DNA from: Anaerolineae bacterium
GTDB taxonomy: Bacteria > Chloroflexota > Anaerolineae > JBHIEC01
Assembly (NCBI GenBank): GCA_046760425.1
Contig: JBHIEC010000001.1
Location: 325-64,324, forward strand
Reading direction: 5' to 3'
Length of the DNA stretch: 64,000 nt
Notes under the pieces: model-generated
What the model was told of the DNA's origin: nothing
The model's input: only the letters and a program-made list of their open reading frames with translations
Database searches by the model: none
Translations under genes and position numbers: made by a program
Shown here: one piece after another, positions 36,250 to 55,411 of the stretch
How positions within the stretch are numbered: position 1 is the first letter of the stretch
Layout: each line of letters starts with the position of its first letter

Positions 36250-36275
36250 CTCTTCTCTTTGCGTAAGACATATAC

Positions 36276-38355: not shown

Positions 38356-39612
38356 CTAGCGGTGGCATATCAGACACGTCTCGCCCCTCCTGCCCCGGTG
38401 GCTGGCCGGATAGGGGCTCAGGCTACCCTGGGCATGGCACAGAAGACAATCGCTCCGCCCCTCCATGGGGTGCTGGATCCGGGGCGCGACGCCCACGGCG
38501 GGGACGATCTCCGCCGTCGGAGTGACCGTTGGCTGCGGGGGAGCTATGGCGGTGGTGCTGGGGCCACCCTGCCAGGATCGCATGAGGGCTAGGAGATCGT
38601 TGATGTCGTCGGTGCTCAACAGGGCGTGGAAGGAGGGCATGGCCTCCCCGCCGTCGCGGATGTAGCGGCCCATGGTCTCATCATCCAGGTTGCCCAGCGT
38701 CTCCACCGAGCGCAGGGCCCGCCCGCCGATCTCTATCTCCCCCTCCAGGCCATGGCAGCCGCTGCATAAGCGGGCGAAGAGCTCCCGCCCCTCGGCAGCG
38801 TCCCCCAGGGCGGCATTGAGCCGTTCCGCGGCCGACGTGCCGGCCACCAACGGTGCTCCCGCCTCCCAGGAGCGGATCAGAGCCACCAGCTCGTCAATCT
38901 GGCCGTCGGTCAGCAGGCCCAACTCGCCCCAAGACAGCATGGGGGAAGCACCCCGCCCGCTGATGATGGCCTGTCGGATGGCTGCATCGTCGTAGCTGGC
39001 CAGGAAGGCCCTGGAGTTGAGGGCTGGCCCCAGCCCACCCTCCCCCTTCTGGCCGTGGCAGCGGGAGCAGATATTGGCGAAGATCTCCTGGCCGCTCAGT
39101 TGAGCGCTGGTCAGGGTCCCATGGCAGGCCAGGCAAACCTCGCTGCTGCGGCCGGCGTGGTCGTCGGGATAGCGGGGTGCCTGGCCGACGCCCAGCTTGT
39201 GGCACATCAGGCAATCCTCGCGACCCTTCAGCTCATGGGGCACCTGGGGAGGCGGTAGGGCCACGCCGACGACGATGGGCCGCGCACCGGCCACGTGGCA
39301 GCGCCGACAGTCCTCATTGGTGCGGCCAGCGTGATCGTGGGGCAGGATAGGCGCCCCCACGGTGCCCTCCAGGTGACACATGAGGCAGTTGTCCCGCCCC
39401 TCCAGATCGTGGGGGATCAGGGGGGGCGGCGCCACAGGGGTAACCGGCGCTGGCCGGGCGATGGCGGCAACGGTCACCGTAGGCTGCTGGAGGAGCGACG
39501 CCTGAAGGGGAGGGGGAGGAGGAGTTGGGGGGCCGGCTCCCTGGCAGCCAGCCAGCAGGGCCGTGGCCGCCAGCAGGAGGAAGCAGAGCAGCAGGACTTT
39601 CGCCCGTTTCAT
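38356..39612 (-). CDS. Multiheme c-type cytochrome lipoprotein (8 CxxCH)
   Basis: LLAGC lipobox. Repeated IPHxLEGRxxCLMCH...HAGRxxxxCxxCH paired-CxxCH modules plus two class-I-like CxxCH segments. Confidence 0.8.
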   Translation of the reverse strand: MKRAKVLLLCFLLLAATALLAGCQGAGPPTPPPPPLQASLLQQPTVTVAAIARPAPVTPVAPPPLIPHDLEGRDNCLMCHLEGTVGAPILPHDHAGRTNEDCRRCHVAGARPIVVGVALPPPQVPHELKGREDCLMCHKLGVGQAPRYPDDHAGRSSEVCLACHGTLTSAQLSGQEIFANICSRCHGQKGEGGLGPALNSRAFLASYDDAAIRQAIISGRGASPMLSWGELGLLTDGQIDELVALIRSWEAGAPLVAGTSAAERLNAALGDAAEGRELFARLCSGCHGLEGEIEIGGRALRSVETLGNLDDETMGRYIRDGGEAMPSFHALLSTDDINDLLALMRSWQGGPSTTAIAPPQPTVTPTAEIVPAVGVAPRIQHPMEGRSDCLLCHAQGSLSPYPASHRGRRGETCLICHR

Positions 39613-39622
39613 AGGATCGCTC

Positions 39623-40969
39623 TTACCTCCCTTCAGCCCGCCGACCGCGTCTGCGGGTCCAGAACACCGCTCCCAGGCCCAGCAGGCCCAACACCACCGC
39701 GCTGCTGGCTACGAGAGCCGGGCGCCGTGGATTGGCCCCACTGGCCTCCTCAGTCTCGGCAGGCACCCGGGCCGGGACGGGCGTCTCGGCCGGAGCCCTG
39801 GCCAGAGCCGTGGGCGCTGGTGTCTCCACCTGGGTCGCCGCCTGCACGGCGGAGGCGCTCAGTGGCAGCCCCAGCACGGCGGCGGCCCACTCGGCCGGCT
39901 TGTCCGTGTGGCAGATGTAGCAGGCGGTGGGCATCACTTCCTGGCCACCGTACTGCATGGTCTTGCGCGGATCGGGGGGCCAGAAGGTGTGGCTGCGGAT
40001 CTGAAAGTCGGTGACAACCAACTGGGAGATGGCGGGCATGTGACAGTCGGTGCAGAACACAGGCACATCCTTCATAAAGGGGATGTGGGCCCCCTGATCC
40101 CGCTTGCTCTCGTGGCAGATGATGCAGCGGTGGTTGCCCACCATGCGGGTCTGGTGGTCCGTCTCCCCTTTGCTGTGGGAGACGTGGCAGAAGATGCAGT
40201 TGACGCTCCGGGCGTGCTCGCCCTTCTGCCAATCCAGGTACTGCATGTGGTGCTTCTTGGCGCTGCCGTCGGGCCAGAAGTCGCCCGGATCAGTGGTGAA
40301 GATGAAGGCCTCGGCCAGGCGGGTGGGGCCGCCGGGCCGGAAGCCGACGGGGAAGGGGTACGTGCCTGACGGGTCGTGGCCCCGGCTGTGGCACTGACCG
40401 CACACCTCAGCCTGGCTCTCGAAGTCCAGGCGGGCCGGGTTGACGATCATAGTGCGGTTGCCCGTCGAGGCCACGTGATCACCGCCCGGCCCGTGACAGG
40501 CCTCACACCACACCCCCATCTCCGACCACTCCCCTGTCCAGGGGTCGTAGCCAGTGGTGTGGCAGCCCGCGCACAGCCTCCTGTAGGGCCGCGCCCGCCA
40601 GTCAGCCGGGTGATAGGGCATCCACTCGCCGGCCACCACATTCCACTCGGCCGGCAGGACGTACAGCTCCCCCTCGATCTCCGTCAGGTAGCGCTGCTTG
40701 TACTGGCCGCCGATGACGTAGCGCACCTCATGGCGGCTAAAAGTTAGGTCTGGATCCCGGGACGTGAAATCACCCAGAATCGCCTCGTCGCTGGCCTCCC
40801 GCAGCATCCGGGGATGCCAGGTCTCCTGGAAGGCAGCGTACTTGGAGGCGTGACATTGGCCGCAGGTTCTGGAGCCCACGTAGTTTGGCCCCTGAGCCCG
40901 GGCCACGGAGGATAGCAGGACGAGAAAGAGAGCAGCTATCAAACCGAGGAGGGCGGTACTACGCCGCAT
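39623..40969 (-). CDS. Multiheme c-type cytochrome (8 CxxCH) with C-terminal membrane anchor
   Basis: Signal peptide. CGQCH, CAGCH, CEACH, CGQCH, CIFCH, CIICH, CTDCH and CYICH motifs. C-terminal transmembrane helix. Confidence 0.8.
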   Translation of the reverse strand: MRRSTALLGLIAALFLVLLSSVARAQGPNYVGSRTCGQCHASKYAAFQETWHPRMLREASDEAILGDFTSRDPDLTFSRHEVRYVIGGQYKQRYLTEIEGELYVLPAEWNVVAGEWMPYHPADWRARPYRRLCAGCHTTGYDPWTGEWSEMGVWCEACHGPGGDHVASTGNRTMIVNPARLDFESQAEVCGQCHSRGHDPSGTYPFPVGFRPGGPTRLAEAFIFTTDPGDFWPDGSAKKHHMQYLDWQKGEHARSVNCIFCHVSHSKGETDHQTRMVGNHRCIICHESKRDQGAHIPFMKDVPVFCTDCHMPAISQLVVTDFQIRSHTFWPPDPRKTMQYGGQEVMPTACYICHTDKPAEWAAAVLGLPLSASAVQAATQVETPAPTALARAPAETPVPARVPAETEEASGANPRRPALVASSAVVLGLLGLGAVFWTRRRGRRAEGR

Positions 40970-40992: not shown

Positions 40993-41652
40993 TTACGCCC
41001 CCTCCTTCAGGTAATATACCTTGGGCTCCGTTCCCAGCTCTTCCAGCAGACGGAAGGCGCGGGGGCTTCGTGCCAGCTTGGAAACCACGCTATCAGGATC
41101 GTCAAGGTCGCCGAAATAGCGGGCGTTAGCAGGGCAGGCCTGGTTGCACGCGGGCACCGGCAGGCGGTGGATGCAGAAGGTGCACTTCTCGACCACCCCC
41201 TTGGGCCGTGGCGTTGGCCCCTCCAGTCGGCCCGGCCCCTCCACCCGCTCCGGATTTATGTAGGCCTCGAGCCCTTCCGGCCACTGGGGGGCGTACCAGT
41301 TAAAGTAGCGGGCGCCGTAGGGGCAGGCCACGGTGCAGTAGCGGCAGCCGATGCAGCGGGCGTAGTTCTGCCGCACGATCCCTTCTTCGTCTTTCCAGGT
41401 GGCCCCTACGGGGCAGACCCGCACGCAGGGCGGGTTGTCGCAATGCATACAGGGCCGGGGGATGAAGCGGGCCTTGACGTGGGGGTACTCCCCCTCCACC
41501 TCGCTCAGAACCTCGTTCCAGAAGATGGCCCGTCCCATCTCGGCCTGTTCCGGCCCCACGAAGGTCACGTTGTTCTCGGCCTGGCAGGCCGCCGTGCAGG
41601 CCTGACAGGCCACGCAGCGGTCGAGATCAATGACCATACCCCAGCGCGGCAT
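40993..41652 (-). CDS. 4Fe-4S ferredoxin-type subunit of a molybdopterin oxidoreductase (PsrB/NrfC/DmsB-like)
   Basis: Four cysteine clusters (CVACQACTAAC, CMHCDNPPCVRVC, CIGCRYCTVAC, CTFC...C). Start at MPRWGMVIDLDRC. Confidence 0.8.
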   Translation of the reverse strand: MPRWGMVIDLDRCVACQACTAACQAENNVTFVGPEQAEMGRAIFWNEVLSEVEGEYPHVKARFIPRPCMHCDNPPCVRVCPVGATWKDEEGIVRQNYARCIGCRYCTVACPYGARYFNWYAPQWPEGLEAYINPERVEGPGRLEGPTPRPKGVVEKCTFCIHRLPVPACNQACPANARYFGDLDDPDSVVSKLARSPRAFRLLEELGTEPKVYYLKEGA

Positions 41653-41663
41653 ATGAGTCCTCC

Positions 41664-44084
41664 TCAGTACCCCTTGTACACCTTCACCCGCGTCGAGAAC
41701 CAGGCCGCCGTGCCCCCTAGCCGATTGTAAGCGTTGATGATCAGCCAGTTGGGGTTGACGCCTCTCCCCTGGGCCCAGCGGCCGTAGGCCCGGTGACCGA
41801 ACTCGAAGGGCATGTTCACCGTGTCCGGCCTGGCGCCCGGATAAAGCTTGACCCGCACTTTGAACCGCTCCCCCAGAGGCGACTCCACCCACACCCAATC
41901 TCCATCGTGGATGCCCAACACCTCGGCCGCCTGGGGGTTGATCTCCAGCCAGCTATCCCACTTCATGTTGACATGCAGGCCGAACTTCTCCGCTAACCAG
42001 GGGCTGTTGGCCCCCCGCCCCTCAGCATGGGCCATGACCTTGAAGGTGTTGAGGTGGAAGGGGTATTCCGCCTCGTCACCGATGTACAGGGGGGGCTCGT
42101 AGTGGGGCAGATACAGCTCGTCGCCCCGGGCCCCCACCTCCAGATCGGCCAGCATGGCCTCCAGTTCCTCGGCTGCCGAGGTGCCCTTATGAGCCGCCTC
42201 CTGCTGGGCCAGGCCCTCCAGGGTCCGCTGCAGATGCTGGGAGTAGAACTCGAAGCGGCCCGAAGGCGTATTGAAGACCCGACCCCACTGCCCGAAGAGA
42301 TAGGGCGGATCGTGCCACACACCCTTGGTGCTGAACTCGTCCCAGAAGTGGGTGAAGGTCGTGGCGCGGATGCTGCCCCGCTCCGCCTGCCACAATCCGC
42401 CTATCCGATAGTGGAGCACCTCCTGGAAGGTGGTCCAGGGGAAAGACTCGGCCATCCCCCCACCCACCCGCCGGGCGATGCGAAGCAGCACGTCGCCCGT
42501 GTTCATGGTGTTGTGGAGCGGCTCCACAGCCGGTTGTCGCAGGCTGACCACGGGGTAGCCCAGGCTGGGATCAACCACGTCGTCCTGCCAGCGCTCCAGG
42601 TAGGTGTGGTCGGGCAGAATGAGATCAGCATGGACACTGCTGTCATCCAGGAAAGGCGAGAAACTGACCACGAAAGGCACTTTCTGGATGGCCTCGTAGA
42701 AGCGGCTCACCTGGGGGGTGGAGAAGAGGGGATTGGTATAGTAAAGGAGGAGGGCCTTGACCGGATAGGGATCTTCGGCCAGGATACTGTCTGGCACCTG
42801 CTGGTAGACGTTCCTGGCCAGGGGATAGCGCCTGGTGCCAGCGTGATCCACGCGGGGCATGGCCAGCCCCTGTTCAGCGACGGCATCGGTGATCACTTCT
42901 GGCCAGGGCATGAAAGGCGGCTCCCGTTGGGTCATCACCCCGCCAGGCACCTCGAAGCTGCCCACCAGGGCGTTCAGGGCCTGGATAGCCATCCAGTTGA
43001 AGAGGCCGTTGGACTGCATGCTGATGCCCCGGCCGCCAGCGGCGATACAGGGCCGCGTGGTGGCGAACTCCTGGGCGATGCGCACGATGGTCTCGGCCGG
43101 CACGCCGGTGATGGCCTCTACCTGGCGCGGCGAGTAGTCCCGCAGCACCAGTGTCCGAAAGCCCATGTGGCTCACGCCGGCCTCATCGGTCCAATCATCG
43201 AAGCCGTGGGTGTACTTGCCCACGAAGTCCTGGTCCCATAGCTCCTCAGCAACGATGACGTGAGCTATACCCAGGGCCAGGGCGCCGTCGGTGCCAGGCT
43301 TGATAGGGATCCACTCGTCGGCCTTAGCGGCGGTGATGGACAGCCGGGGCTCGATCTGGATGAATTTGGCCCGTTTGTTGGGTCGGTCGCGGCGCATGTA
43401 GCCGAAGGCCCGCAACTGGCGGACCGTGGGCCGCGAGGCTTCCAGGAAGGCTCGACCGAAGCTCAGGACGTACATCGTGTTGTCCCAGTCGTAAGCTGAC
43501 TCGGCATGGTGGCCCTGGACGAGGTAATTGGCGATGCGCGTGCCCTCCACGCTCATGCTGCCATGGTTCACGAGGTTGGGCGTGCCATAGGCGCGGCAAA
43601 AGCGCTCGATGAGGCCCTCCATCTGGCCCTGCACCCGACCGGTCAGGAAGACCAGGCTGTGGGGCTGGCCCGCATCGCGGAGGGCCCGTAGTTCATGGGC
43701 CACGGTTTGGATGGCCTCCTCCCAGGTGATGGGCTCCCACTGCCCTGAACCTCGCTGGCCCACCTGGCGCATGGGCCCCTTTATGCGGTCAGGGTCGTAG
43801 AGGACCTGGAGTCCGGCGTTGGCCTTGGGGCAGACCTTGCCCTTGTTGATGGGATGCAGGGGGTTCCCTTCGACCTTTATCGCCCGGCCGTCAACCACGC
43901 GCACCAGGATGCCACACCCGCCGGGGCACTGCAGGCAGACGGTGGGCACCCAACGCTCGTCGTGCTGGGATGGAGCTGCTCCATCCGTCTGGGGCTGGAA
44001 GATAGGGCTCCTTAGCTTGGCCACCGCCACCGTGGCCGTCCCTGCGCCAGCGGCCTTGAGGAAGGTTCGTCGGGTGATTTTCAT
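41664..44084 (-). CDS. Molybdopterin-dependent oxidoreductase catalytic subunit (DMSO-reductase family, PsrA/PhsA/TtrA-like) with Tat signal
   Basis: Twin-arginine signal TRRTFLKAAGAG. N-terminal 4Fe-4S motif CLQCPGGCG...C. 806 aa. Confidence 0.85.
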   Translation of the reverse strand: MKITRRTFLKAAGAGTATVAVAKLRSPIFQPQTDGAAPSQHDERWVPTVCLQCPGGCGILVRVVDGRAIKVEGNPLHPINKGKVCPKANAGLQVLYDPDRIKGPMRQVGQRGSGQWEPITWEEAIQTVAHELRALRDAGQPHSLVFLTGRVQGQMEGLIERFCRAYGTPNLVNHGSMSVEGTRIANYLVQGHHAESAYDWDNTMYVLSFGRAFLEASRPTVRQLRAFGYMRRDRPNKRAKFIQIEPRLSITAAKADEWIPIKPGTDGALALGIAHVIVAEELWDQDFVGKYTHGFDDWTDEAGVSHMGFRTLVLRDYSPRQVEAITGVPAETIVRIAQEFATTRPCIAAGGRGISMQSNGLFNWMAIQALNALVGSFEVPGGVMTQREPPFMPWPEVITDAVAEQGLAMPRVDHAGTRRYPLARNVYQQVPDSILAEDPYPVKALLLYYTNPLFSTPQVSRFYEAIQKVPFVVSFSPFLDDSSVHADLILPDHTYLERWQDDVVDPSLGYPVVSLRQPAVEPLHNTMNTGDVLLRIARRVGGGMAESFPWTTFQEVLHYRIGGLWQAERGSIRATTFTHFWDEFSTKGVWHDPPYLFGQWGRVFNTPSGRFEFYSQHLQRTLEGLAQQEAAHKGTSAAEELEAMLADLEVGARGDELYLPHYEPPLYIGDEAEYPFHLNTFKVMAHAEGRGANSPWLAEKFGLHVNMKWDSWLEINPQAAEVLGIHDGDWVWVESPLGERFKVRVKLYPGARPDTVNMPFEFGHRAYGRWAQGRGVNPNWLIINAYNRLGGTAAWFSTRVKVYKGY

Positions 44085-45370
44085 CTACTCTGCCTCCTGA
44101 CCATCAGCAGGCCGGCGGCTGAGACCAGCCCCAGGGCGACGACCCCCATGGTCATGCCCTGCAACCAGGCCCGTTGCCACGATCTCCGGGCCGACGCCGC
44201 CTGATCCAGAGCGCTCTCGATGTCGGCACAGAGGGCTCTGACCAGATCGGTCTTGGACTTGATCAGTTCGGGCTGTACGGTGTGCTGCACGATCCTGGCC
44301 TCCATCAAGCGTGTCCTCGCCTGCTGGAGTTTCACCTCCTCGGCCGCCGTGGCTAGCCCCGTGCTCTGGGCCTGCCCGATGGCTGCCTCGGCCCTGGCCA
44401 GGCCCTGGGCGGCATCCGTGAGGTCCTGGTAGATGGCGTCCACCTGCTCGCGGATCAGTGTGCCGGCCCCGTGGCAACTGCCGCAGTGTCGGGGCGCGTT
44501 GCCCAGGTACATCTCTGTACTGGCCGGCGGCACGTTATAGCGGCCATGGCAGGACACGCAGCGGGGGACCTCGGGCTTCGTCACCCCGAAGCCGAGGCCG
44601 TGCCCCCCGGTCAGGTAGGCTTCGCGCACTGCGGGATGGCAATCCGCCCCGCAGATGTCAACCACCTCGGTGTAGCCGGGCAGGGAGGCCCCGTGGTTGC
44701 CGTGGCAGGTGGCACAGGTGGGAGCCCGCAGATTGTGTTCCTGCACCAGGGCGATGCCGTGCGCGCTTTCCTTAAACAGGGCGTACTGGTTGGTAGGGAT
44801 GCCGTAGGGTGCCATCAGGTCGGCGTTGGCGTGACACCGGGCGCAGGTGCCTGGCAGATTCACCGGGTAGACCGTGGAGCCCGGATCGTTGGCCTCGCGG
44901 ATGTTGTGGCCGCCGTGGCAATCGTAGCAGGTGGCCACGTTCTCATCCCCCTGGGCCAGCCGTTGGCCGTGCACGCTCTCCTGGCGGTATTGGCGCAGTT
45001 GATCTGTGGGCAGGTTGTATATCCGCATCTTCTCCGCATCGGCGTGGCACGAGCCGCACAGTTCGGGGATATCGGCCCTGCGGGGCACCCCTATAAAGCC
45101 CGCCTGGGGCGACATGGCGGCTGCCATCTCCTGAGCTGTGGGATCGCCGCCGTGGCAATCGGCGCAGCCCACCCCGCGCACAGCGTGAATACTGCCCGCC
45201 CACTCCTCAGCGACAACCTGGTTGCGGCCGCTGAGCGAGGCGTGGCAATAGAAACAGGCGTTCTCGCCCTGGCCAGGAGGGTGAGCCAGGGGTTGAGCTC
45301 CGGCCATGAAAGGTATCATGAAGCTCACGGCCAGAGACAGTATTGCTATCCCTGTTCGCCGCCGAAGCAT
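44081..45370 (-). CDS. Multiheme c-type cytochrome (about 9 CxxCH)
   Basis: ATG at MLRRRTG is preceded by GGAGGAGGTG. Homologous to the C-terminal half of the 51441..53516 cytochrome. Confidence 0.8.
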   Translation of the reverse strand: MLRRRTGIAILSLAVSFMIPFMAGAQPLAHPPGQGENACFYCHASLSGRNQVVAEEWAGSIHAVRGVGCADCHGGDPTAQEMAAAMSPQAGFIGVPRRADIPELCGSCHADAEKMRIYNLPTDQLRQYRQESVHGQRLAQGDENVATCYDCHGGHNIREANDPGSTVYPVNLPGTCARCHANADLMAPYGIPTNQYALFKESAHGIALVQEHNLRAPTCATCHGNHGASLPGYTEVVDICGADCHPAVREAYLTGGHGLGFGVTKPEVPRCVSCHGRYNVPPASTEMYLGNAPRHCGSCHGAGTLIREQVDAIYQDLTDAAQGLARAEAAIGQAQSTGLATAAEEVKLQQARTRLMEARIVQHTVQPELIKSKTDLVRALCADIESALDQAASARRSWQRAWLQGMTMGVVALGLVSAAGLLMVRRQSR

Positions 45371-45404
45371 CGGAATCACCTCCTCCACAACCCCAAAGGC
45401 AGGG

Positions 45405-46869: not shown

Positions 46870-48456
46870 TTAACTCCCTCCCTCACTCGCCCCAGAAGAC
46901 GCCACCGTCTCCGGGAGGTAACTTCGCAAGCGCTCCACCGTGGCCGGGATGGCCTCCGGGGCTTCCTGCACCTCCCAGATGGAGATGATGGGGAAGAGCT
47001 TGACGAAAAGGGCGTAAATCAAGACAAAACCCGCCAAAGCTGCCGCCGTGATGGACCACTCCACCCAGGTGGGACGGTAAATGCCGATGGAATACAGCAG
47101 CATCGGCCGGGTCTCGGTGGGGACGACGATGGTGAAGCGCTCCAGCCACATCCCCAGGTCCACCAGCAGCGAAGCCACCACGGTGCCGGCGATGATGTTG
47201 CGGCGCAGAGCGGGCAGGACCGAGGCGGCGAAGAGGGCCAGCAAGATACCCAGCAGCCACAGGAGCCGCTGCGAAACCGTGGGGGTCAGCGCCAGCCCGA
47301 CCTGAGCAGTGACAGGGGCCGCCTGGCTGAACATCACTATGGCCACGGCCAGGGCAGCCACCCCCGTAGCCAGGGCATACCTGGGCCGGAATGCCGGCAG
47401 TCGCATGCGCCTGGGCGCCGGCAGGTGAGGCAGAAGCAGCACCACAAAGGCCGCCGCCATCGCCGCCACCATCCCCCAGAAGACAATCTGGTATTCCCCC
47501 CTCAGCTTGGTGTTGAAAACGGCCATCTCGTGGGGTACCCCGCCGTAGCCAGTGGTCAGGTACTCGGCGAAGGTGAAGTAAAACCACAGGGCGTTGAAGG
47601 TGATGAGCAGCAGTCCCAGGTAGCGGAAGTGAAGCGGCTTGAGGTAGCCCTCCAGGTGGAAGGCTTTGCGGATGACCGCCATGGCGATGAGGATGGTGGC
47701 AATGCCCGAGTAGATAGCGCCGATGACAAAGTAGGGGCCAAAGATGGTGCTATGCCACATCGGCTGCAGCGTCATACCGAATATCCAGGAAACCACGGTG
47801 TGCACCGAGATGGCGAGGGGGATGATGAGGATGGCCATGATGGTGATGGCTTTCTCCAGGCGGCGCCGTTGTTCGGAGCCGCCGTGCCAGCCCAGGGCCA
47901 GGGTTCGGTAGAGCCACTGCCGCCAGGCTGGAGTCGTTGCGGGCAACTGATCCCGCAGGATAGCCAGATCAGGGATCAGCGGCAGGTAAAGGTACGTGAT
48001 GCTCCCCGTAATGTACATCCCCACTGAGGTGATGTCCCACAGCAGAGGCGACTGGAAGCGGCCGCGTAGGATCAGATTGAGAAGACGGTCTGGCCGGCCC
48101 ATATCGGCGAAGATTTGCGTGAGCGCCAGGGCCAGAGCAAAGACGGTGATGGCCTCGGCCGCGCGGGTGATGGGCCGCCGCCATTCCGCCCCGGCTACTC
48201 GCAGGATGGCGCTGATCAGCGTCCCGGCATGACTGATGCCGATGAAGAAGACAAAGTTGCTAATATACAGGCCCCAATAGATGGGCCGGTTCATCCCTGT
48301 CACGCCCAACCCCTCACGGAGCTGGTGCACCCAGGCGTACAGGCCCCAGGCCACCACTGCCGATAGGGCAGTCACCACCAGCCAGTAACCCAGCCTGGTG
48401 CGCAGGATGGGTGCCAGGAGCAGCGGGTCAACCGCTCTTGTCTCACGTTTGTTCAT
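46870..48456 (-). CDS. NrfD/PsrC-family polytopic membrane subunit (quinone-interacting)
   Basis: About 528 aa, multiple transmembrane helices. Start at MNKRETRA is preceded by GGAGGAGG. Confidence 0.75.
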   Translation of the reverse strand: MNKRETRAVDPLLLAPILRTRLGYWLVVTALSAVVAWGLYAWVHQLREGLGVTGMNRPIYWGLYISNFVFFIGISHAGTLISAILRVAGAEWRRPITRAAEAITVFALALALTQIFADMGRPDRLLNLILRGRFQSPLLWDITSVGMYITGSITYLYLPLIPDLAILRDQLPATTPAWRQWLYRTLALGWHGGSEQRRRLEKAITIMAILIIPLAISVHTVVSWIFGMTLQPMWHSTIFGPYFVIGAIYSGIATILIAMAVIRKAFHLEGYLKPLHFRYLGLLLITFNALWFYFTFAEYLTTGYGGVPHEMAVFNTKLRGEYQIVFWGMVAAMAAAFVVLLLPHLPAPRRMRLPAFRPRYALATGVAALAVAIVMFSQAAPVTAQVGLALTPTVSQRLLWLLGILLALFAASVLPALRRNIIAGTVVASLLVDLGMWLERFTIVVPTETRPMLLYSIGIYRPTWVEWSITAAALAGFVLIYALFVKLFPIISIWEVQEAPEAIPATVERLRSYLPETVASSGASEGGS

Positions 48457-48554: not shown

Positions 48555-48751
48555 TTCAGCTTGGAAACCGCATAAGTACTTTTAATTATAAACCCCTCTT
48601 TCCCCTACGTCTATGCCCCAATCTGGTCCTTTTGGCGCAAAAAAAGAGCTATCTTTGCGATAGCTCAAAAGGGCTATAAGGGCGGGCTTGAGTCACCCGA
48701 GGGGGCCACATCCTCCCAGAGATAAACCTCCCATATTTCGACCACCCCCCA

Positions 48752-49423
48752 CTAAGTCTCTCGAGAAGGGGCGTGCACCAATCCCTTGCGGACGGCGTAG
48801 ACGGCTGCCTGGACGCGGTTCTCCAGGTGCAGCTTGGCCAGGATGTTGCGCAGATGGTTCTTGACCGTGTTCTCGGTGATGTACAGAGCCTCAGCGATCT
48901 CGGCGTTGGACAACCCCTCAGTTACCAGTTGCAGGACTTCCCGCTCACGATCGGTCAGGGCACTGCCCGGCTCGCCCCCCCGGGGTTGCAGGCGGGTCTG
49001 GCGGGAGAACTCCCGCAGGATCTTGCTGGCCATAAGGCGCGAGATGGGCGCCTCGCCCCGGGAGACGCCCCGCAGCATCTCGAACAGCTCTTCCGGCTCC
49101 AGCTTCTTCAGAAGGTAGCCCTGCGCCCCAGCCTTGATGGCCTCAAAGAGGTCCCGGTCGTCATCGGAGACGGTGAGCATGACGATCTTGACGTAGGGCA
49201 TCTCCTCCATGATCAGCCGCGTGGCCTCCCGCCCATCGCAGACGGGCATCGTGATGTCCATGAGGATCAGATCCGGCATCAGCTCCCGCGCCCGCTCCAG
49301 GGCCTCCAGCCCATCCCCGGCCTCGCCCACCACCTCGAAATCCTCCTGGGCAGCCAGCAGGCTGGCCAATCCCTTGCGGAACAGGATGTGGTCGTCCACC
49401 AGCAACACCCGCATGGCCTCCAT
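48752..49423 (-). CDS. NarL/FixJ-family response regulator (receiver plus LuxR-type HTH)
   Basis: MRVLLVDDH...DILMD receiver domain. C-terminal LTDREREVLQLVTEGLSNAEIA helix-turn-helix. Confidence 0.85.
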   Translation of the reverse strand: MEAMRVLLVDDHILFRKGLASLLAAQEDFEVVGEAGDGLEALERARELMPDLILMDITMPVCDGREATRLIMEEMPYVKIVMLTVSDDDRDLFEAIKAGAQGYLLKKLEPEELFEMLRGVSRGEAPISRLMASKILREFSRQTRLQPRGGEPGSALTDREREVLQLVTEGLSNAEIAEALYITENTVKNHLRNILAKLHLENRVQAAVYAVRKGLVHAPSRET

Positions 49424-49425
49424 GT

Positions 49426-51438
49426 CTACCCCTCTTCCCCCTCCTGGCCCCGGGGGACACGGACGATGACCCTGGTCCCCTTGCCAGGCTGGCTCTCAAT
49501 GGACAGGGCCCCGCCCAGGCTCTCCGCCCGCTCCCTCATGATGGCCAGGCCGAAGTGCCGCCCACCCTTGCGGGCTACGGTGTCGGCATCGAAGCCCCGA
49601 CCGTCGTCCTGGATGACGATCTCCGTCTGGTTCCCATCCAGCTTGAAGGCGACCAGGGCTCGCTGGGCCTGGGCATGCTTCCGTACGTTGGCCAGGGCCT
49701 CCTGCACGATGCGGATGAGCTGGATCTCGTCGGCCGGGGCGAAGTGGGGCTCCACATCGCCATCACGCACCACCAGCTCCGTCTGCAACCCGTGGCGCAG
49801 GCCGAACTCGTGGACGTACTCCCGCAGGGTAGGGATCAGCCCCCGCTCCCGGGAGACGGTGGTCCGCAGGTTGGTGATGGCTTCACGCACGTCGTCGTAG
49901 GACTCGCTGATAACCTCCTCGATCTGCTCCAGGTCCTCCTGAGCCTGGGCCAGCCGGCCGGCGGCCAGGTGCCCTTGGGCCACCTTGAGCTTGAGGTTGA
50001 GATAACCCAGGGCCTGGGCCAGCCCATCGTGCATCTCCCGCCCGATCCGATCCCGCTCCTCCAGCACAGCCAGGTTCTGCACCTCCTGAGATAGCTCCTG
50101 AACCCGCCGCTCCATCCCCTCATACAATTGGGCGTTCTCGATGGCTATGCCCAACTGGTTCCCGATGGCCGTCAGCAGCTCCACGTCATAGGGGCCGAAG
50201 TGGCGGGGCGGTCGGTCGTGGACAGTCAACACCCCCAGGGCGCGATCCTTGGCCCGCAGGGGCACACAGGCCACGGAATGATAGCCCTGGCGCTGACAGG
50301 CCAGGCGGGTGGCGCGGGGGTCGTTGTAGACATCCTGCACCACAATGGTCTCCGCCAGATGGCTGGCCTGGCCGCACAGGCACTGGCCCACCCCGATGGT
50401 GGTCTCCTCCTGGACAAAGTCGGTCGGGGAACCCACGTAGGCGCGCAGCTTCAACCTCTCCCCCCCATCCTCCAGCAGATAGATTTCCCCCGCCTCCATG
50501 TCCATCACCTCCAGCACCTCGGCCAACCCGCGGTCCAGGATCTGGGCCAGGTCCAGGGAGCGGATGGTGGTAGCCGTGATGCGATGCAGGGCGGAGAGCC
50601 GCTCCGTCTGGCGCTGGAGTGCCACGGTGCGTTCCTGGACCTGGCGCTCCAGCCTGGCCTTCTCCTCCAACCCCTGGGCCATGCGGTTGAAGGACTCGGC
50701 CAGCTCGCCAATCTCGTCCCGGCCGCCGACCCTCACCCGGGGTGTGAAGTCGCCCTGACTGAAGCGTTTAATGGGTACCATAAACTCTTCCAGCTTCTTG
50801 AGCACCAGCCGGTTCATGGCGAAGTTGACACCCAGGGCCGCCAGGAGGATGCCGACCAAGGAAAGCAGGATGTTCTGGCGCACATCGGCCGCCAGTTGGG
50901 CATCAATCTCGGCCATGGACAGGTCCGTGATCAGGACACCGTTGATCCTGGTGGCGGGATCGTGGCAGGCGTGGCACTCCTCCGCGTTGGCGATGGGGTT
51001 GACGTTGCGGAAAACCCGCTCGCCGCGTTGGGTGGTGAAGACCACGCTGCGGCTGCGGTCCTGGGGCTCCTCCTGATGACAGATCTGGCAGGTGGGGTCC
51101 TGCCGATCGAGCCTCGTCCCCACTTCCTCTTCCTGCGAGGAGATGCGGATCTCACCCCTCTTGTCGAGCAGAACGAGGTTCTTGACCCCCCTCTGGGTGG
51201 CGATGTCGTCCATGATCTGTCGCGTCTCCGACAGGTCACCGGACAGCATGGCGTAGCGCAGGCTACCCTCGATCACCTCTCCCAGGTTGGTGCTGCTGCG
51301 CTTCATACTGTCCATCAGGAGGTTGCGTTGGCGCACATACTGGAAATAGGTGAAGAACACCATGCTCAGCAGCAGGGGGATGACCACTCCGGCTGTGATC
51401 TTGAAACGCAAGCTGTCGTAGACCCGTTGGGGTCTCAT
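49426..51438 (-). CDS. Sensor histidine kinase with two CxxCH heme-c motifs in the periplasmic domain (HAMP-GAF-HisKA_3-HATPase)
   Basis: TM1, then CQICH and CHACH, then TM2. HAMP domain, GAF domain, H-box MHDGLAQ and ATPase domain. ATGA overlap with the upstream cytochrome gene. Confidence 0.8.
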   Translation of the reverse strand: MRPQRVYDSLRFKITAGVVIPLLLSMVFFTYFQYVRQRNLLMDSMKRSSTNLGEVIEGSLRYAMLSGDLSETRQIMDDIATQRGVKNLVLLDKRGEIRISSQEEEVGTRLDRQDPTCQICHQEEPQDRSRSVVFTTQRGERVFRNVNPIANAEECHACHDPATRINGVLITDLSMAEIDAQLAADVRQNILLSLVGILLAALGVNFAMNRLVLKKLEEFMVPIKRFSQGDFTPRVRVGGRDEIGELAESFNRMAQGLEEKARLERQVQERTVALQRQTERLSALHRITATTIRSLDLAQILDRGLAEVLEVMDMEAGEIYLLEDGGERLKLRAYVGSPTDFVQEETTIGVGQCLCGQASHLAETIVVQDVYNDPRATRLACQRQGYHSVACVPLRAKDRALGVLTVHDRPPRHFGPYDVELLTAIGNQLGIAIENAQLYEGMERRVQELSQEVQNLAVLEERDRIGREMHDGLAQALGYLNLKLKVAQGHLAAGRLAQAQEDLEQIEEVISESYDDVREAITNLRTTVSRERGLIPTLREYVHEFGLRHGLQTELVVRDGDVEPHFAPADEIQLIRIVQEALANVRKHAQAQRALVAFKLDGNQTEIVIQDDGRGFDADTVARKGGRHFGLAIMRERAESLGGALSIESQPGKGTRVIVRVPRGQEGEEG

Positions 51439-51440
51439 GG

Positions 51441-53516
51441 TTAGAATTTCCTGACCCGTTTAAAATAGTCTTCATCCAGTTGCCGCTTGGCATAGTAGAG
51501 CAGGCCACTGATCAGGGCGATGCTGGCCACGGCCACCACCATAGCCTGGCGGCGGAAGACGGTCTCGGCGATGGCCTTCTCGGCCCTGTCCCGCACCTCG
51601 GTGGCGATACTCCTGGCCTCCTCCGTTTTGTTCTCCGCTGTGGCCAACTGGACCGTGTGCTGGGCCGCCCGGGCTATGGTCAGGCTGGTTTTGGCTTCCC
51701 GCAGCCTCTCCTCCTCCACGGTCACGATCAGGCCCCTGGCCGCCGCCCGAGCCACCATGGCCTCCGCCTCCTCCACGGCGCCGGCCGCTCCGGCCAGGGC
51801 CTGATACATGTCAGCCACTATCCCTCCGATAGGAGTGTCGGGGGCGTGGCAGCTACCGCAGTGCCGTGGCTGATCCCCCAGGAACATCTCCTCGCTGGGC
51901 ACCATGACGTCATGGTGGCCATGACAGGTCACGCACTCGGGCATGCCGGGCGCTTTGGCCCCATGCCTGCCCTGCAAGTAGTAGTCCTGAGTGGCCGTGT
52001 GGCATCCCCCACAGACGCTGGCCACCTCTTCAAAGCCAGGAGGCGCGGCGCCGTGAGTCCCATGGCAGGTGGCACAACTGGGCGCCCGCAGGTCCTGCTT
52101 CTTGAGCAGCGCGATACCGTGGACACTTTCTTTATACAATTCGTACTGGTTGGTGGGGATACCATAGGGGCGCATGAACCCCTTGTCCGAGTGGCAAGAG
52201 GCACACAGGCCGGGCACGTTAGTGGGATAGACGCTGGTGGAGGGATCGTTGACCTCCCTGGTGCCGTGGCCATCGTGGCAATCGAAACAGGTGGCCACCC
52301 TCTGGTCTCCCTGGGTCAGGAGCTGGCCGTGCTGGCTTTCCAGGTACTTGGCATACTGGTCAATGGGCAAATCGTACTGGCGCATCAACTCCACCCGGGC
52401 GTGGCAGGAGCCACACAGGCTCGGGATATCGGCCTTAGCGGGCACACCGATGTAGCCGGCCTGAGGCGACATGGCCGCCCCGGCGTCGCTGGCCGCGGGG
52501 TCGCCGCCGTGGCAATCGGGACAGCGGATGCCCCGGCTGGCGTGGATGCTGCCCTGCCAGGCCGTGGTGATCTTCTCGTGTTTGCCTCCCAGGGCCTTGT
52601 GGCAATCCAGGCAAGTGTTCTGCCCGGGGGTGAAGGGGTACTGGATGGGCGTAGGCAAGGGTCGAGGGGGGGTCGTAGGCGTAGGTGTGGGCGTCGGCTG
52701 GGCCATGGCCGCTGGCTGGTGACAGCCCTGGCACGTATCGTTGGTGCGGTCAGCGTGGTCGGCCGGGAACTGCGGGGCACCTCCCACGCCGGTCTCGTGG
52801 CACATACGGCAGTTGTCACGCCCCTCCAGGGAATGGGGGATGGTGGGCGGGCCGGCCTGGGCAGCGGTGGGTTGTGCCGTGGCGATCGGCTGGTGACAGA
52901 ATTGGCATCCCTCGTTGGAGCGGCCGGCGTGATCGGCCGGGAACTGTGGTGCGCCGCCTACGCCGGTCTCATGGCAGCTCAGGCAGAGCTCCCGCCCCGC
53001 CACGGGGTGAGGGATCTGGGGCGGGGCTGCCGGCGAGGTGGGGGTGATAGTAGCCGTCGGTTCCACGGGGGTTGTGGGAGCGGCAACCACGGCCGGCTGG
53101 TGACAGTTCTGGCAGATGTCGTTGGTGCGGCCAGCATGATCTTTGGGCACCTGCGGGGCGCCGCCCACGCCGGCCTCGTGGCAGGCCAGACAGGCATCGC
53201 GCCCCTCCAGGGAGTGGGGAATAGGGGGAGGCACCAGCGGGGGGGTGGTGGCCTCTGGTTCGGGAGTCGCCACGGCCTCGGCGCTCACCCATTTGTGGCA
53301 CAACTGACACACCCGGTCCGTGCGGCCGGCGTGGGTGTCAGGCACCGGGGGCGCGCCGCCCACCCCCGTCTCGTGGCAGGTCAGGCACGCCTGACGCCCC
53401 TCCAGGGGATGGGGGATGGGGGGTTGGGCCAGGGCCAGACCCGGCAAGACGATGAGGACGACGGTCAGCCCCAGGGCCAGGATAGCTATCTCAAATACCA
53501 CAAGCGCTCGCATCAT
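51441..53516 (-). CDS. Large multiheme c-type cytochrome (about 17 CxxCH) with N- and C-terminal membrane anchors
   Basis: Four tandem paired-CxxCH modules (IPHxLEGRxxCLxCH...HAGRxxxxCQxCH), then a nine-motif domain homologous to 44081..45370. Confidence 0.85.
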   Translation of the reverse strand: MMRALVVFEIAILALGLTVVLIVLPGLALAQPPIPHPLEGRQACLTCHETGVGGAPPVPDTHAGRTDRVCQLCHKWVSAEAVATPEPEATTPPLVPPPIPHSLEGRDACLACHEAGVGGAPQVPKDHAGRTNDICQNCHQPAVVAAPTTPVEPTATITPTSPAAPPQIPHPVAGRELCLSCHETGVGGAPQFPADHAGRSNEGCQFCHQPIATAQPTAAQAGPPTIPHSLEGRDNCRMCHETGVGGAPQFPADHADRTNDTCQGCHQPAAMAQPTPTPTPTTPPRPLPTPIQYPFTPGQNTCLDCHKALGGKHEKITTAWQGSIHASRGIRCPDCHGGDPAASDAGAAMSPQAGYIGVPAKADIPSLCGSCHARVELMRQYDLPIDQYAKYLESQHGQLLTQGDQRVATCFDCHDGHGTREVNDPSTSVYPTNVPGLCASCHSDKGFMRPYGIPTNQYELYKESVHGIALLKKQDLRAPSCATCHGTHGAAPPGFEEVASVCGGCHTATQDYYLQGRHGAKAPGMPECVTCHGHHDVMVPSEEMFLGDQPRHCGSCHAPDTPIGGIVADMYQALAGAAGAVEEAEAMVARAAARGLIVTVEEERLREAKTSLTIARAAQHTVQLATAENKTEEARSIATEVRDRAEKAIAETVFRRQAMVVAVASIALISGLLYYAKRQLDEDYFKRVRKF

Positions 53517-53543: not shown

Positions 53544-53987
53544 TCAGCTATAATACCCCCAGATGGTCAGGATCGTCATGGCCACCACGACGACCAGGCC
53601 GATGGCTATAGCCAGAGGTCTCTTGCGAGGATGAACCTCGGGGTTACGGTCCAGGAAAGGCAAGAGCAACAATATGATGATGCCCACGATGGGCGTCAGG
53701 ATGCCGATGCTGCGCGGCACCAGCTTCAGCAGTTGGTATATGGCCAGGAAGTACCACTCAGGCTTGATGTGGGGAGGCGTGCGGAGGGGATCGGCCTTCT
53801 CCTCCAGGCCAGCCGGGAAGAGGGAGGCCAGGATGATCAGCACGGCCAGCATGATGTACCACATGATGAGTTCGCCGAACAGATAGTTGAGAAAGGGGAT
53901 GGTCTCCGGCTTCTGAGGCTGCGGCGTGAGCAGTTCAGCCCTGGGTGCTTCCGAACGTTCATCGTGCTTCTCAGGTTCAGACAGCAT
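53544..53987 (-). CDS. Cytochrome b6-f subunit IV-like protein (cytochrome b C-terminal domain)
   Basis: PEWYFL motif and three transmembrane helices. Confidence 0.75.
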   Translation of the reverse strand: MLSEPEKHDERSEAPRAELLTPQPQKPETIPFLNYLFGELIMWYIMLAVLIILASLFPAGLEEKADPLRTPPHIKPEWYFLAIYQLLKLVPRSIGILTPIVGIIILLLLPFLDRNPEVHPRKRPLAIAIGLVVVVAMTILTIWGYYS

Positions 53988-53993
53988 GGCTTC

Positions 53994-54695
53994 TCACTCT
54001 CCCTTCTTGATGTGGGTGGCACCGGGCCGCGAGGGGTCAAAGAGCCCCTGCTGGTGGATCATGAACAGATGCGCCAGCAGGAGGACGGTCAGGGTGACGG
54101 GCAGGACCAGGACGTGGATGCCGAAGAAGCGGGTCAGCGTCAGGGCGGTGATATCGGTGCCGGCCCGCAGGAAGCGCAACAGGATGGAACCCACCAGGGG
54201 CACGGCCCCGGCGATCTCGCTGCCCACGGTGGATGCCCAGTAGGCCCGTTGATCCCAGGGCAGGAGGTAGCCGGTGAAGCCGAAGGCCAGGGTCACCGCC
54301 AGGAGCAGGACACCTACCACCCAGGTCATCTCGCGGGGGGGCTTGTAGGCTCCCTGGAAGTAGACCCGCAGCAGGTGCAGGACACAGAAGACGATCATCA
54401 GGTTGGCCGACCAGGAATGGAGGCTGCGAATCAGCCAGCCGAAGTTGACCTGGTTCTGGATGAGCAGGATGCTCTCATAGGCCGCCTCAGGGGTGGGTCG
54501 GTAATAGAGGGCCAGCAGGATGCCGGTGACGCCCTGCACGAAGAAGAAGAAGAGAGTGATCCCGCCCAGGAAGAAGGTCCTGGCCCGGAGGGGCATGGGC
54601 TCGTTGAGCAGATCATTCAGAGGTTTCCGTATGGCCAGGCGCTGGTCGAGCCAGTCCATGACGCGATCACCAAGGGCAGTGAGGTCTAGCATCAA
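53994..54695 (-). CDS. Cytochrome b6-like (cytochrome b N-terminal domain)
   Basis: Four transmembrane helices. Heme-ligating histidines are spaced as in cytochrome b6 (LHSWSANLMIVFCVLHLLRVYF). Confidence 0.8.
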   Translation of the reverse strand: MMLDLTALGDRVMDWLDQRLAIRKPLNDLLNEPMPLRARTFFLGGITLFFFFVQGVTGILLALYYRPTPEAAYESILLIQNQVNFGWLIRSLHSWSANLMIVFCVLHLLRVYFQGAYKPPREMTWVVGVLLLAVTLAFGFTGYLLPWDQRAYWASTVGSEIAGAVPLVGSILLRFLRAGTDITALTLTRFFGIHVLVLPVTLTVLLLAHLFMIHQQGLFDPSRPGATHIKKGE

Positions 54696-55162
54696 GCACC
54701 TCCCACGTAGATGTTCTCCCCCTCGACGAAGACCTCCATCGGAGGCAGGGGGGCTGGCGGCGGGCCGGAGATAACGGCGCCGTTGATAGGGTTAAAGCGG
54801 CCGTCATGGCATGGGCACAGGATGAATTGTCGGGCCTGATCCCATTCCACGATGCAGCCTAGATGGGTGCAGATGGCGGAGAAGGCCCTGATGCCTTGGG
54901 CAGTATTGACCACCACCACCGGCTTGTTCTCCACGGGCACCACCTTGCCCTGGCCCACGGGCAGGTCCTTCGTGGTCCCAACCAGGACCCGTCCCCCACC
55001 GGCCCCAGCCCCCCGCGCCGGGGGCCACAGGTAGCCGATGATGGGCACCAGCACCCCAACCAGGGTGCCCAGGAAAGACAAACCCAGGGCCCAGGTGAGA
55101 AATGTGCGCCGGCTGATGCCTCTGCGTTGGGAACCGCCTGTCAGTTCGTTGCTTGCTGACAC
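54692..55162 (-). CDS. Rieske 2Fe-2S protein with Tat signal
   Basis: RRTFL twin-arginine signal. CTHLGC ... CPCHDGRF motifs. Confidence 0.85.
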   Translation of the reverse strand: MSASNELTGGSQRRGISRRTFLTWALGLSFLGTLVGVLVPIIGYLWPPARGAGAGGGRVLVGTTKDLPVGQGKVVPVENKPVVVVNTAQGIRAFSAICTHLGCIVEWDQARQFILCPCHDGRFNPINGAVISGPPPAPLPPMEVFVEGENIYVGGA

Positions 55163-55411
55163 CTTCTCCTCCTCACAGTGAACATCTCATGCAGGTTTCA
55201 ATCTTACCACACCAGGGTCAAGATGTCAAAAAGCGCTACCAAGACGGCGTTCACGTCGAGGAGAGCGCCCTTTAGAGAGCTTCGAGCTTCAGAACATCCC
55301 CCACGGCACATCGAGGGGCTCTGGCCATCCGCCCTTAGAGCCGAAAACCGTGGCGCAGGCTTTCGAGCCTGCGTGGGCAGCCGCCCCACAATGGGGTTTC
55401 CGGATAGGTTC

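Follow-up and report, generated by a model that had tools for sequence, protein, structure and literature searches.

How respiring bacteria sense the state of a multiheme cytochrome chain is largely unknown, and in-depth study has so far covered two single-heme chemoreceptor domains of Geobacter, GSU0582 and GSU0935. In GSU0935 the heme is attached through Cys140 and Cys143, with His144 as the proximal and Met60 as the distal ligand, and binding of Met60 accompanies reduction; the crystal structure of GSU0582 contains a high-spin heme ligated by His and water (PMC8396549). Here we analyze a sensor histidine kinase encoded by an open reading frame of 670 amino acids (aa) at 49426..51438 of a 64,000-nucleotide (nt) stretch of an Anaerolineae genome (assembly GCA_046760425.1, contig JBHIEC010000001.1, positions 325 to 64,324), referred to below as the window. 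All features of the kinase locus and of the gene island around it lie on the minus strand. A sequence-only reading of the window had proposed that the kinase is a periplasmic sensor with covalently bound heme c, embedded in an electron-transport operon and responding to redox state or to a small ligand. All computational tests turned out in favor of this central proposal, the heme attachment and the nature of the signal being predictions. At the level of sequence, we establish the membrane topology (two spans, N-terminus inside), a fold of the sCache_heme type, the presence of two CxxCH motifs, their conservation, the ligand register, and the operon layout. The kinase is very probably a heme-c sensor, and we assign a probability of roughly 0.55 to the more specific reading that its hemes sense, on the periplasmic side, the redox state of the respiratory chain and that it controls a respiratory gene island.

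The N-terminus of the kinase can be aligned with those of its homologues, and three Logan metagenome contigs carry an identical kinase with the same neighbors. The SecA protein encoded in the window shows 100% identity to a protein of an NCBI metagenome-assembled genome (MAG) named "Anaerolineae bacterium". The protein starts with a positively charged segment (R2, R5, R11, K13) and the first transmembrane helix (TM1, residues ~14-34, 51337..51399), followed by a periplasmic single-Cache (PDC) sensor domain of the GSU0582/GSU0935 heme-c type (residues ~35-188, 50875..51336) and the second transmembrane helix (TM2, residues ~189-209, 50812..50874), both helices being located by a hydropathy scan. 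Pfam models identify the remaining domains as HAMP (residues 208-259, 50662..50817; PF00672, E 2.9e-13), cytoplasmic GAF (residues 296-433, 50140..50553; E 1.6e-23), the dimerisation and phospho-acceptor domain HisKA_3 (residues 461-527, 49858..50058; PF07730, E 5.4e-16), and the catalytic domain HATPase_c (residues 570-663, 49450..49731; PF02518, E 4.6e-18). With HAMP as a cytoplasmic domain and positive charges at the N-terminus, the 154 residues between the two helices form a loop on the periplasmic side; the HAMP domain likewise follows TM2 in 78 of the 82 scanned family members. Within the GAF domain (residues 353-391, window 50260-50380) we also observed the cysteines Cys353-x-Cys355, Cys381, and Cys391. 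They are partly conserved, the CxC pair being present in six of 13 GAF-bearing relatives as well as in the relatives L019 and P0001, and may represent a second, cytoplasmic thiol or metal input.

Exactly two CxxCH motifs are found in the kinase, CQICH (motif 1, residues 117-121, 51076..51090) and CHACH (motif 2, residues 155-159, 50962..50976). Both are located between TM1 and TM2, and the HAMP domain after TM2 places them outside the cytoplasm, as the sequence-only reading had described and as its proposed check of the loop topology confirms. The pair is not explained by chance, since only 0.0005 motifs are expected in the loop from the protein's own composition (probability of two or more, ~1e-7) and none of 40,000 shuffles of the kinase protein yielded two motifs. 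Conservation of the motifs, which had been set beforehand as a test, was analyzed in an alignment of 155 sequences: the query and 154 representatives, these being the best 150 of the 3,125 family representatives described below together with the first homologues. No columns of the domain are better conserved than those of the six motif residues (96-99%): C117 is retained in 150 of 153 sequences, C120 in 151 of 153, and H121 in 148 of 154, the corresponding counts in motif 2 being 151/152 for C155, 149/153 for C158, and 148/153 for H159. The conserved histidine after each CxxC argues for heme attachment and against a four-cysteine metal site. Both motifs, separated by 36-38 residues, occur in 135 of the 154 representatives. 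Either motif is sporadically lost among the relatives, and in L019 a 12-aa deletion takes out motif 1 only.

The next most conserved positions of the domain are Gly167, Met64 (146/155, 94%), Asn151, Arg144, and Asp172. Met64 (51247..51249, codon checked) is located on the long N-terminal helix and is a candidate distal axial ligand of the heme at motif 2. Its loss tracks the loss of motif 2, with Met64 missing from three of seven sequences that lack the motif and from four of 138 that retain it (Fisher p = 0.002, in a small and non-independent sample), which fits a role of Met64 in serving this heme.

Homology to the solved Geobacter domains is detectable with the single sequence (3B47, GSU0582, E 9e-5; 3B42, GSU0935, E 1e-3) and increases with a profile of 36 relatives (3B42, E 1.6e-9; 3B47, E 3.7e-9). 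The Pfam model of these domains, PF21563 (Mcp40H-20_sensor), matches the kinase with 26.1 bits (E 1.1e-5) over profile positions 7-110 of 112. In the alignments C155, C158, and H159 pair with the CQSCH of 3B42 and 3B47, and Met64 pairs with chain residue 26, which is Met60 of GSU0935 in full-length numbering according to the register that we worked out from the alignment. An AlphaFold2 model built from a 36-sequence alignment (pLDDT 92.9, pTM 0.85) predicts a long N-terminal helix (residues 28-66), five strands, and a C-terminal helix running into TM2. Motif 2 precedes the last strand in a loop, at the same place as in the solved GSU0582 and GSU0935 domains. Motif 1 falls on a helix between strands 2 and 3 (residues 115-121 in the models), a region that is cysteine-free in these structures. 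A Foldseek comparison of the model with the PDB gave the Cache/PDC domains of WalK (TM-score 0.75), CitA (0.70), KinD, and DctB as the best matches, and recovered 3B42 and 3B47 at E 1e-6 to 2e-5. The model PF11845 (Tll0287-like/DUF3365) does not match the kinase at E <= 0.01, and the Tll0287 structure 5B82 is not recovered by the family profile at E <= 1.

The extent of the family was estimated by an exhaustive profile search counting representatives of 50%-identity clusters, which was used in place of a word-indexed protein search that found five relatives with the single sequence and one with a profile. With a threshold of E <= 1e-3 it yielded 3,125 representatives, of which 230 also passed E <= 1e-30, so that the "handful of Deltaproteobacterial examples" assumed by the sequence-only reading applies only to the characterized members, which are indeed few. 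The genome hits of the relatives are MAGs of Anaerolineae, Methylomirabilota, Rokuibacteriota, Zixiibacteriota, Deferrimicrobia, and Deltaproteobacteria; two-motif relatives, for instance, come from a Deltaproteobacteria MAG (L021) and a Deferrimicrobia MAG (L022). Among the 82 scanned members, HATPase_c is present in 71, HisKA in 42, HisKA_3 in 29, GGDEF in six, and HD-GYP in two.

According to a 2026 preprint (PMC12889525), the sCache_heme family comprises 5,000-20,000 sequences and is rare or absent in Chloroflexota; the expressions "two CXXCH" and "diheme" do not occur in that text. PF21563 matches 41 of our 82 scanned members at E <= 1e-4, and PF11845, the profile used in the preprint, matches one. 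The two-heme branch was thus probably under-sampled in the preprint, and since half of the scanned members escape PF21563 as well, it is under-annotated in general, Chloroflexota included. The apparent scarcity of heme Cache sensors in Chloroflexota censuses is probably explained by existing Pfam models missing this branch.

Proteins with a second motif have been named before. One sentence in each of the citing papers describes such proteins as homologues of the GSU0582/GSU0935 domain that possess an "additional heme-binding motif": GSU0591 and GSU0599 (Londer et al. 2006, cited by PMC3831638 and PMC8396549), as well as Adeh_2011 and Adeh_3383 (PMC3831638; 2013). GSU0599 is annotated as a two-component protein. 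No biochemical characterisation of these four proteins was found in the searchable literature. PcrS of perchlorate reducers was considered as a characterized heme kinase and dismissed, the CXXCH in the respective paper belonging to another protein.

The genomic context of the kinase connects it with respiratory electron transfer. The gene is preceded by an open reading frame for a cytochrome c (51441..53516) in which we count 17 CxxCH motifs, in agreement with the sequence-only reading; the protein has an N-terminal signal, four tandem di-heme repeats followed by a 9-heme domain, and a C-terminal transmembrane anchor. Three adjacent genes of one operon in turn precede this cytochrome: a Rieske 2Fe-2S subunit (54692..55162; PF00355), a b6-type cytochrome b in split form (53994..54695; PF00033, E 2.7e-55), and the C-terminal, subunit IV-like part of cytochrome b (53544..53987; PF00032 and NCBIfam). 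The NCBIfam scores of the cytochrome b remain below the family cut-offs both for ExtP (248.8 bits against 290) and for cytochrome b6 (254.3 bits against 325). The kinase is followed by a response regulator with REC and GerE helix-turn-helix domains (48752..49423; PF00072, E 9e-29; PF00196, E 9e-22), which was correctly recognized as NarL-type in the sequence-only reading; among the NCBIfam models NarL fits it best (193.6 bits, cut-off 250), which supports membership of the NarL/FixJ class only. By position in the REC fold, its acidic residues are D10, D11, and D56, the last being the presumed phospho-acceptor.

From Rieske to the regulator, gaps of 2-27 nt separate the six genes, which are probably co-transcribed. 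A promoter-like site, TTGACA-17-TAAGAT with a TG (55201..55229, a consensus match only), is located upstream of the Rieske gene, and a terminator-like hairpin with an 8-bp stem followed by T7 (48646..48666), ~85 nt after the regulator stop, is the likely end of the operon. The junction of cytochrome and kinase reads TAA-CC-ATG and that of kinase and regulator TAG-AC-ATG, so that the regulator starts 2 nt past the kinase stop. The "ATGA" that had been taken for an overlap of stop and start, and hence for translational coupling, consists of the ATG and the base that opens codon 2. Packing of the genes is tight, but translational coupling of the overlap type is absent.

Comparison of the relatives' loci shows which part of this context recurs. 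Five Anaerolineae loci (L001, L005, L006, L007, and L009) contain a two-motif kinase, a NarL-class regulator, and an ArsR-family gene, followed by genes for the same molybdopterin-like, FeS, and NrfD subunits as in the window; none of these five loci contains Rieske or cytochrome b genes. L001 and L007 also encode a 17-heme cytochrome, 47-48% identical to that of the window and located in L007 inside a Qrc-like module. In L024 the kinase P0009 (46% identity), the closest full-length relative among those with neighboring DNA fetched, is directly downstream of a cytochrome with at least 16 hemes that is 64% identical to that of the window, and the regulator of L019 is 72% identical to the one studied here. 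Cytochromes with 5 to 17 CxxCH occur within 10 kb of the kinase in L001, L005, L006, L007, L009, L010, and L015; by a hand tally, a cytochrome with five or more CxxCH lies within this distance in eight of the ~14 loci whose flanks are usable. These neighborhoods indicate that the conserved partner of the kinase is the multiheme cytochrome together with the Qrc-like module, and that the bc genes are specific to the arrangement in this genome. The bc module of the sequence-only reading therefore holds for the present locus, where the Rieske and cytochrome b genes do precede the cytochrome, but not for the family, whose partner is the 17-heme cytochrome with the Qrc-like module.

We propose the following mechanism. 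Both CxxCH sites would be hemylated by the cell's cytochrome c maturation system, which the genome must possess because the same island encodes ~42 further heme-c sites. Heme 2 (Cys155/Cys158/His159) would be placed as in the Geobacter structures, with Met64, on the helix that continues into TM1, as its distal ligand. As in GSU0582 and GSU0935, a change in the redox state of heme 2 would switch it between a high-spin, Met-off and a low-spin, Met-on form and displace the N-terminal helix, and this movement could be transmitted through TM1 and TM2 to HAMP, GAF, and HisKA_3, shifting the kinase/phosphatase balance toward the NarL-class regulator. Heme 1 (Cys117/Cys120/His121) would sit on the helix that closes the ordinary ligand pocket of Cache domains, and may act as an electron-entry or relay heme, or as a heme with open coordination, coupling the sensor to the periplasmic cytochrome pool; its most obvious partner would be the 17-heme cytochrome, which is co-transcribed with it and anchored in the membrane. 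The output would be transcription of the sensor's own operon (Rieske/cytochrome b, 17-heme cytochrome, kinase, and regulator) and probably of the adjacent Qrc-like module. A bolder, joint proposal would be that the two-heme branch forms a distinct, widespread, and uncharacterised class, in which the heme 1 relay wires the kinase heme-to-heme into a multiheme cytochrome network, with the 17-heme protein as the partner, and reads the redox poise of a hydrogen-fed, possibly extracellular, chain in Chloroflexota; as a whole we regard it as decidedly doubtful.

Several observations weigh against a redox sensor controlling this island. Heme on the two-motif proteins, this kinase included, is a prediction, and the kinase misses the PF21563 gathering threshold of 27 bits by 0.9 bit. 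No further conserved His or Met is present in the 155-sequence alignment, leaving heme 1 without an obvious distal ligand, and an open site there would suit gas binding as much as redox sensing. According to the preprint, sCache_heme domains fused to signalling modules bind nitric oxide (NO) tightly and behave as sensors of NO rather than O2 (PMC12889525). The sensors and regulators of the five syntenic loci are only ~44% and ~38% identical to those of the window, and are relatives rather than strict orthologues. Finally, no binding site of the regulator was identified in the window, and the proposed regulon follows from gene position alone. Some of these points lead to the alternative in which NO or another diatomic gas (CO, O2) is the signal and, by binding to an open or weakly ligated heme, displaces or blocks Met64. 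The His and water ligation of the high-spin heme in the GSU0582 crystal (PMC8396549) would be compatible with such a ligand, as would one open site in the kinase, and the HisKA_3/NarL transmitter class is that of nitrate and nitrite systems. However, no gene for the metabolism of NO, nitrite, or nitrate was recognized in the 64-kb window, where the neighbors encode a hydrogenase, bc-type and Qrc-like complexes, and multiheme cytochromes, and multiheme cytochromes are also the recurrent neighbors of the relatives. Moreover, the preprint tested NO binding on proteins of the Tll0287-like branch, to which, judging by PF11845, neither the kinase nor 81 of its 82 scanned relatives can be assigned. 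We consider gas sensing the main rival, if on the unlikely side.

The remaining alternatives concern the role of the motifs themselves. The fold is shared with the ligand-binding Cache domains of CitA, DcuS, DctB, and WalK, and the kinase could be an ordinary chemoreceptor for a small molecule, such as a respiratory substrate or product, a metal, or an oxyanion, with structural or accessory hemes; the ArsR-family regulator in five of the relatives' loci hints at a metal or metalloid signal. This is improbable in our view, as motif 1 falls on the helix that forms the pocket of a canonical Cache domain, which a heme at this place would be expected to fill, and the near-invariant residues of polar or ligand type are limited to those of the heme motifs, Met64, Arg144, Asn151, and Asp172. 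Besides, the sensor is joined to many outputs and found in many contexts, which a general cue such as redox suits better than a single metabolite. A protein with no heme at all, in which the two CxxC pairs, 38 residues apart, form a Zn or Fe site or redox-active disulfides of a thiol-based periplasmic sensor, could in principle assemble four cysteines, but neither a Cys4 site nor disulfides would explain why the histidine after each CxxC is as conserved as the cysteines (148/154 and 148/153). The residue-for-residue alignment of motif 2 with a crystallographic heme site and the existence of natural single-motif variants, incompatible with an obligatory four-cysteine site, make this explanation very improbable indeed. 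The redox-sensor reading remains our preferred one.

Turning to the rest of the island, the operon is flanked upstream, on the minus strand, by genes of the large subunit of a NiFe hydrogenase, its cytochrome b, a maturation protease, and hypA/F/C/D/E. On its other side, a promoter-like site TAGACG-17-TATAAT (48585..48613) is located ahead of a gene for an NrfD/PsrC-type quinone-interacting membrane subunit (46870..48456; Pfam NrfD; ATG at 48456, preceded by GGAGGAGG), which is 53-65% identical to the genes beside related kinases. It is followed by a ferredoxin (46164-46739), a receiver-like protein of 113 aa (45576-45917; weak PF00072 match, 18 bits), and a multiheme cytochrome with eight CxxCH and one CxxxxCH (44081..45388), a paralogue of the C-terminal half of the 17-heme protein. 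Next come a Tat-exported, molybdopterin-oxidoreductase-like subunit of the Arr/Psr/QrcB clade (41664..44084), all NCBIfam matches of which are below cut-off, and a QrcC/DsrO/ArrB-like 4Fe-4S subunit (40993..41898; Pfam; NCBIfam QrcC 244.5 bits, DsrO 189 bits), whose true start is probably near 41660 and which is 60-65% identical in related loci. The island ends with two cytochromes c with eight CxxCH each, one with a signal peptide (39623..40969) and one with class-I cytochrome c domains and two di-heme repeat copies (38356..39612).

The QrcC/DsrO-like and DsrP/QrcD-like partners suggest that this module is Qrc-like or similar to alternative complex III (ACIII), rather than a catalytic reductase. 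Judged by scores, however, ArrA (E 1e-115 against 6CZ7, the Shewanella protein) and PhsA are the nearer relatives of the molybdopterin-like subunit. Its alignment to 6CZ7 has TGRV in place of the ArrA RGRY, and Ser of HGSMSVEGTR in place of Cys of HSSVCAEAHK; we take the Mo ligand Cys193 and (R/K)GRY to be the defining residues of ArrA. The segment of the Mo ligand varies, with insertions and deletions, among the 48-60%-identical orthologues beside related kinases. A true arsenate reductase, and with it arsenic sensing, was considered and rejected, as the ArrA score of 422 bits is far under the cut-off of 1600 and neither the catalytic Cys nor RGRY is kept; the protein may be a cofactor-less subunit of the QrcB/ActB type. 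A molybdenum cofactor or other riboswitch ahead of the molybdopterin-like operon was also discarded, Rfam giving nothing there at gathering or E-value thresholds.

Candidate regulatory sites were sought in the window and in the related loci. The sequence-only reading had suggested looking for NarL-type sites upstream of 55162 and 48456. None were found: a search for TACYYMT heptamers and 7-2-7 pairs in the DNA preceding the genes for Rieske, NrfD, Fer4, the REC-like protein, and the cytochrome gave isolated single heptamers only, with the E. coli consensus, which may not apply here. The five syntenic loci share a direct repeat, AGGGTTTTCCCC / AGGGTTTTCCC(C), present in two copies ~32 nt apart upstream of the ArsR/molybdopterin-like operon (L001 ~3580-3700, L005 ~3420-3500, L006 ~12230-12330, L007 ~6520-6610, L009 ~12200-12290). 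The proximal copy overlaps or abuts a TAGAC -35 element, with TATAAT 17 nt downstream; either adjacent regulator, NarL-class or ArsR, is a candidate to bind the repeat. The ArsR regulator is an ArsR/SmtB-family protein of 117 aa with an HTH_5 domain and DLCVSDI in place of the classical ELCVCDL (L001 3746-4099; equivalents in L005, L006, L007, and L009), and the window has no ArsR-family gene between the two-component and molybdopterin-like genes. Nor is the direct repeat enriched in the window, which has 13 matches with up to two mismatches against 7.2 expected, none at promoters, and no match to the 18-nt form; one match, at 26192, falls in DNA that looks by eye to be coding. The DNA upstream of the L019 kinase was examined as a possible shared regulatory signal and set aside as noise, with only scattered 8-mers in common with the window promoters.

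Some further features of the island are listed here for completeness. The four tandem repeats in the N-terminal half of the 17-heme cytochrome (52693-53432) measure 174-207 nt each, with the unit IPHxLEGRxxCLxCHxxGVGGAPxxPxDHAGRTNxxCQxCH, and two related copies are found in the 418-aa cytochrome (39121-39432, within 38356-39612). A Logan variant of the 17-heme protein (L002; 697 aa, 97% identical) suggests repeat-region polymorphism between samples. The receiver-like protein 45576-45917 lacks the acidic pair after strand 1, with ILLRHP in place of DD, and is a possible pseudo-receiver. Ahead of the 8/9-heme cytochrome gene (45389-45575, minus strand), the hairpin CCCACT-N7-GGTGGGA is enclosed by a long-range inverted repeat with 17 perfectly paired nt, AGAAACCAGGTTTTTTT ... 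AAAAAAACCTGGTTTCT. This structure has no Rfam match and may serve the Qrc-like operon as a structured leader or for its regulation. The ferredoxin gene contains a ~70-nt hairpin (46460-46530), in frame between the two Fe-S cluster motifs and coding for the low-complexity PSLFPELGEGKGGWRGRGEGG; Rfam gives sub-threshold matches to miRNA precursors only, and the hairpin looks like a palindromic element inserted in the coding sequence.

Repeats of other kinds are scattered over the window. Runs of the heptanucleotide GACTTTG (reverse complement CAAAGTC) occur in unrelated coding genes, namely IleRS (11479-11523), hypE (56324-56354), and hypF (59835-59865), and code for SKVQSPKS-type peptide inserts in hypE and hypF. 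A 59-nt repeat, 98% identical between its copies, is present at 38244-38302, where no gene was identified between methylmalonyl-CoA-mutase-type genes and the last cytochrome gene, and at 59721-59779 inside hypF, in a segment (residues ~156-283) skipped by the Pfam HypF domains; possibly the repeat is a small mobile element whose presence within a coding region is tolerated. A GC-rich palindrome of ~30 nt, ATAGAGCGCCGCATAAATGACGGCGCCTGG with its variants, is found three times (390-464, 20739-20806, and 36272-36302), in two cases as inverted pairs, and is a REP (repetitive extragenic palindromic)-like or terminator-like repeat family. Three paralogous genes of tungstopterin-type aldehyde:ferredoxin oxidoreductases lie within 10 kb (18907-20652, plus strand; 23933-25792 and 26385-28286, minus strand) and are adjoined by a gene for a MerR-GAF-PAS regulator (28553-30115). 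Downstream of the aspartyl-tRNA synthetase gene, a T-box leader (15172-15479, minus strand, 94.7 bits) is located beside 6S RNA (15579-15744, minus strand, 69.3 bits).

The locus offers a clean test case for the sensing of respiratory chains, as a two-heme sensor is found here on a classical kinase/regulator pair that is co-transcribed with a bc-type complex and a 17-heme cytochrome, with a hydrogenase and a Qrc-like complex nearby. If the hemes are confirmed, the family would supply kinases and cyclic di-GMP (c-di-GMP) enzymes with a general input module that senses redox state or gas in the periplasm, and would be a candidate part for bioelectronic sensing.

Among known systems, Qrc (QrcABCD) and ACIII resemble the neighbors of the operon, with a multiheme cytochrome and molybdopterin-like, FeS, and NrfD-type subunits, QrcB, QrcC, and DsrP/DsrO being among the best matches. 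Similarly, the ExtP-like cytochrome b recalls the Ext/Cbc-type bc clusters of Geobacter. The likeness to Qrc, ACIII, and Ext describes the genomic context only, all scores being below the family cut-offs. The two-component pair is similar to NarX/NarQ-NarL in its HAMP, HisKA_3, and HATPase_c transmitter and in its REC plus GerE regulator; the best NCBIfam matches of the kinase, NarQ (176.7 bits, cut-off 553) and NarX (162.6 bits, cut-off 578), stay far below the cut-offs and cover the transmitter only (residues ~447-666), so that the resemblance to this class is at family level. The NarX sensor is a four-helix nitrate-binding module, whereas the periplasmic part of the kinase is a heme Cache domain, and the window promoters have no pairs of NarL heptamers.

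Closer to the sensor domain are the Tll0287/DUF3365 domains (PF11845; 5B82), including the NO-binding receptors of Pseudomonas azotoformans and P. putida. According to the preprint, they are extracytoplasmic Cache domains with one heme c bound covalently on an inserted CxxCH element, and are fused to kinases, chemoreceptors, and c-di-GMP enzymes (PMC12889525). The kinase differs from them in that PF11845 does not match it, and Tll0287 uses Cys and His as axial ligands. The strongest similarity is to GSU0582 and GSU0935 (3B47 and 3B42; PF21563; "sCache_heme"), which have the same single-Cache/PDC fold between two transmembrane helices with HAMP after it, the CxxCH before the last strand, the Met on the N-terminal helix, and the signature P-[IL]-x-N-x3-C-x-x-C-H. 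In contrast to these domains, the kinase has a second CxxCH (117-121), a GAF-HisKA_3 kinase output instead of a chemoreceptor, and an Anaerolineae rather than a Desulfobacterota host, at ~20% identity and just under the Pfam gathering score. The second CxxCH is shared, judging by the descriptions in the literature alone, with the sensor domains of GSU0591/GSU0599 and Adeh_2011/Adeh_3383. The kinase thus belongs to a large, known, and barely studied family of heme sensors. The present analysis adds how large and how conserved the two-heme branch is, that it occurs in Anaerolineae, and that it is recurrently linked to the 17-heme cytochrome and the Qrc-like module.

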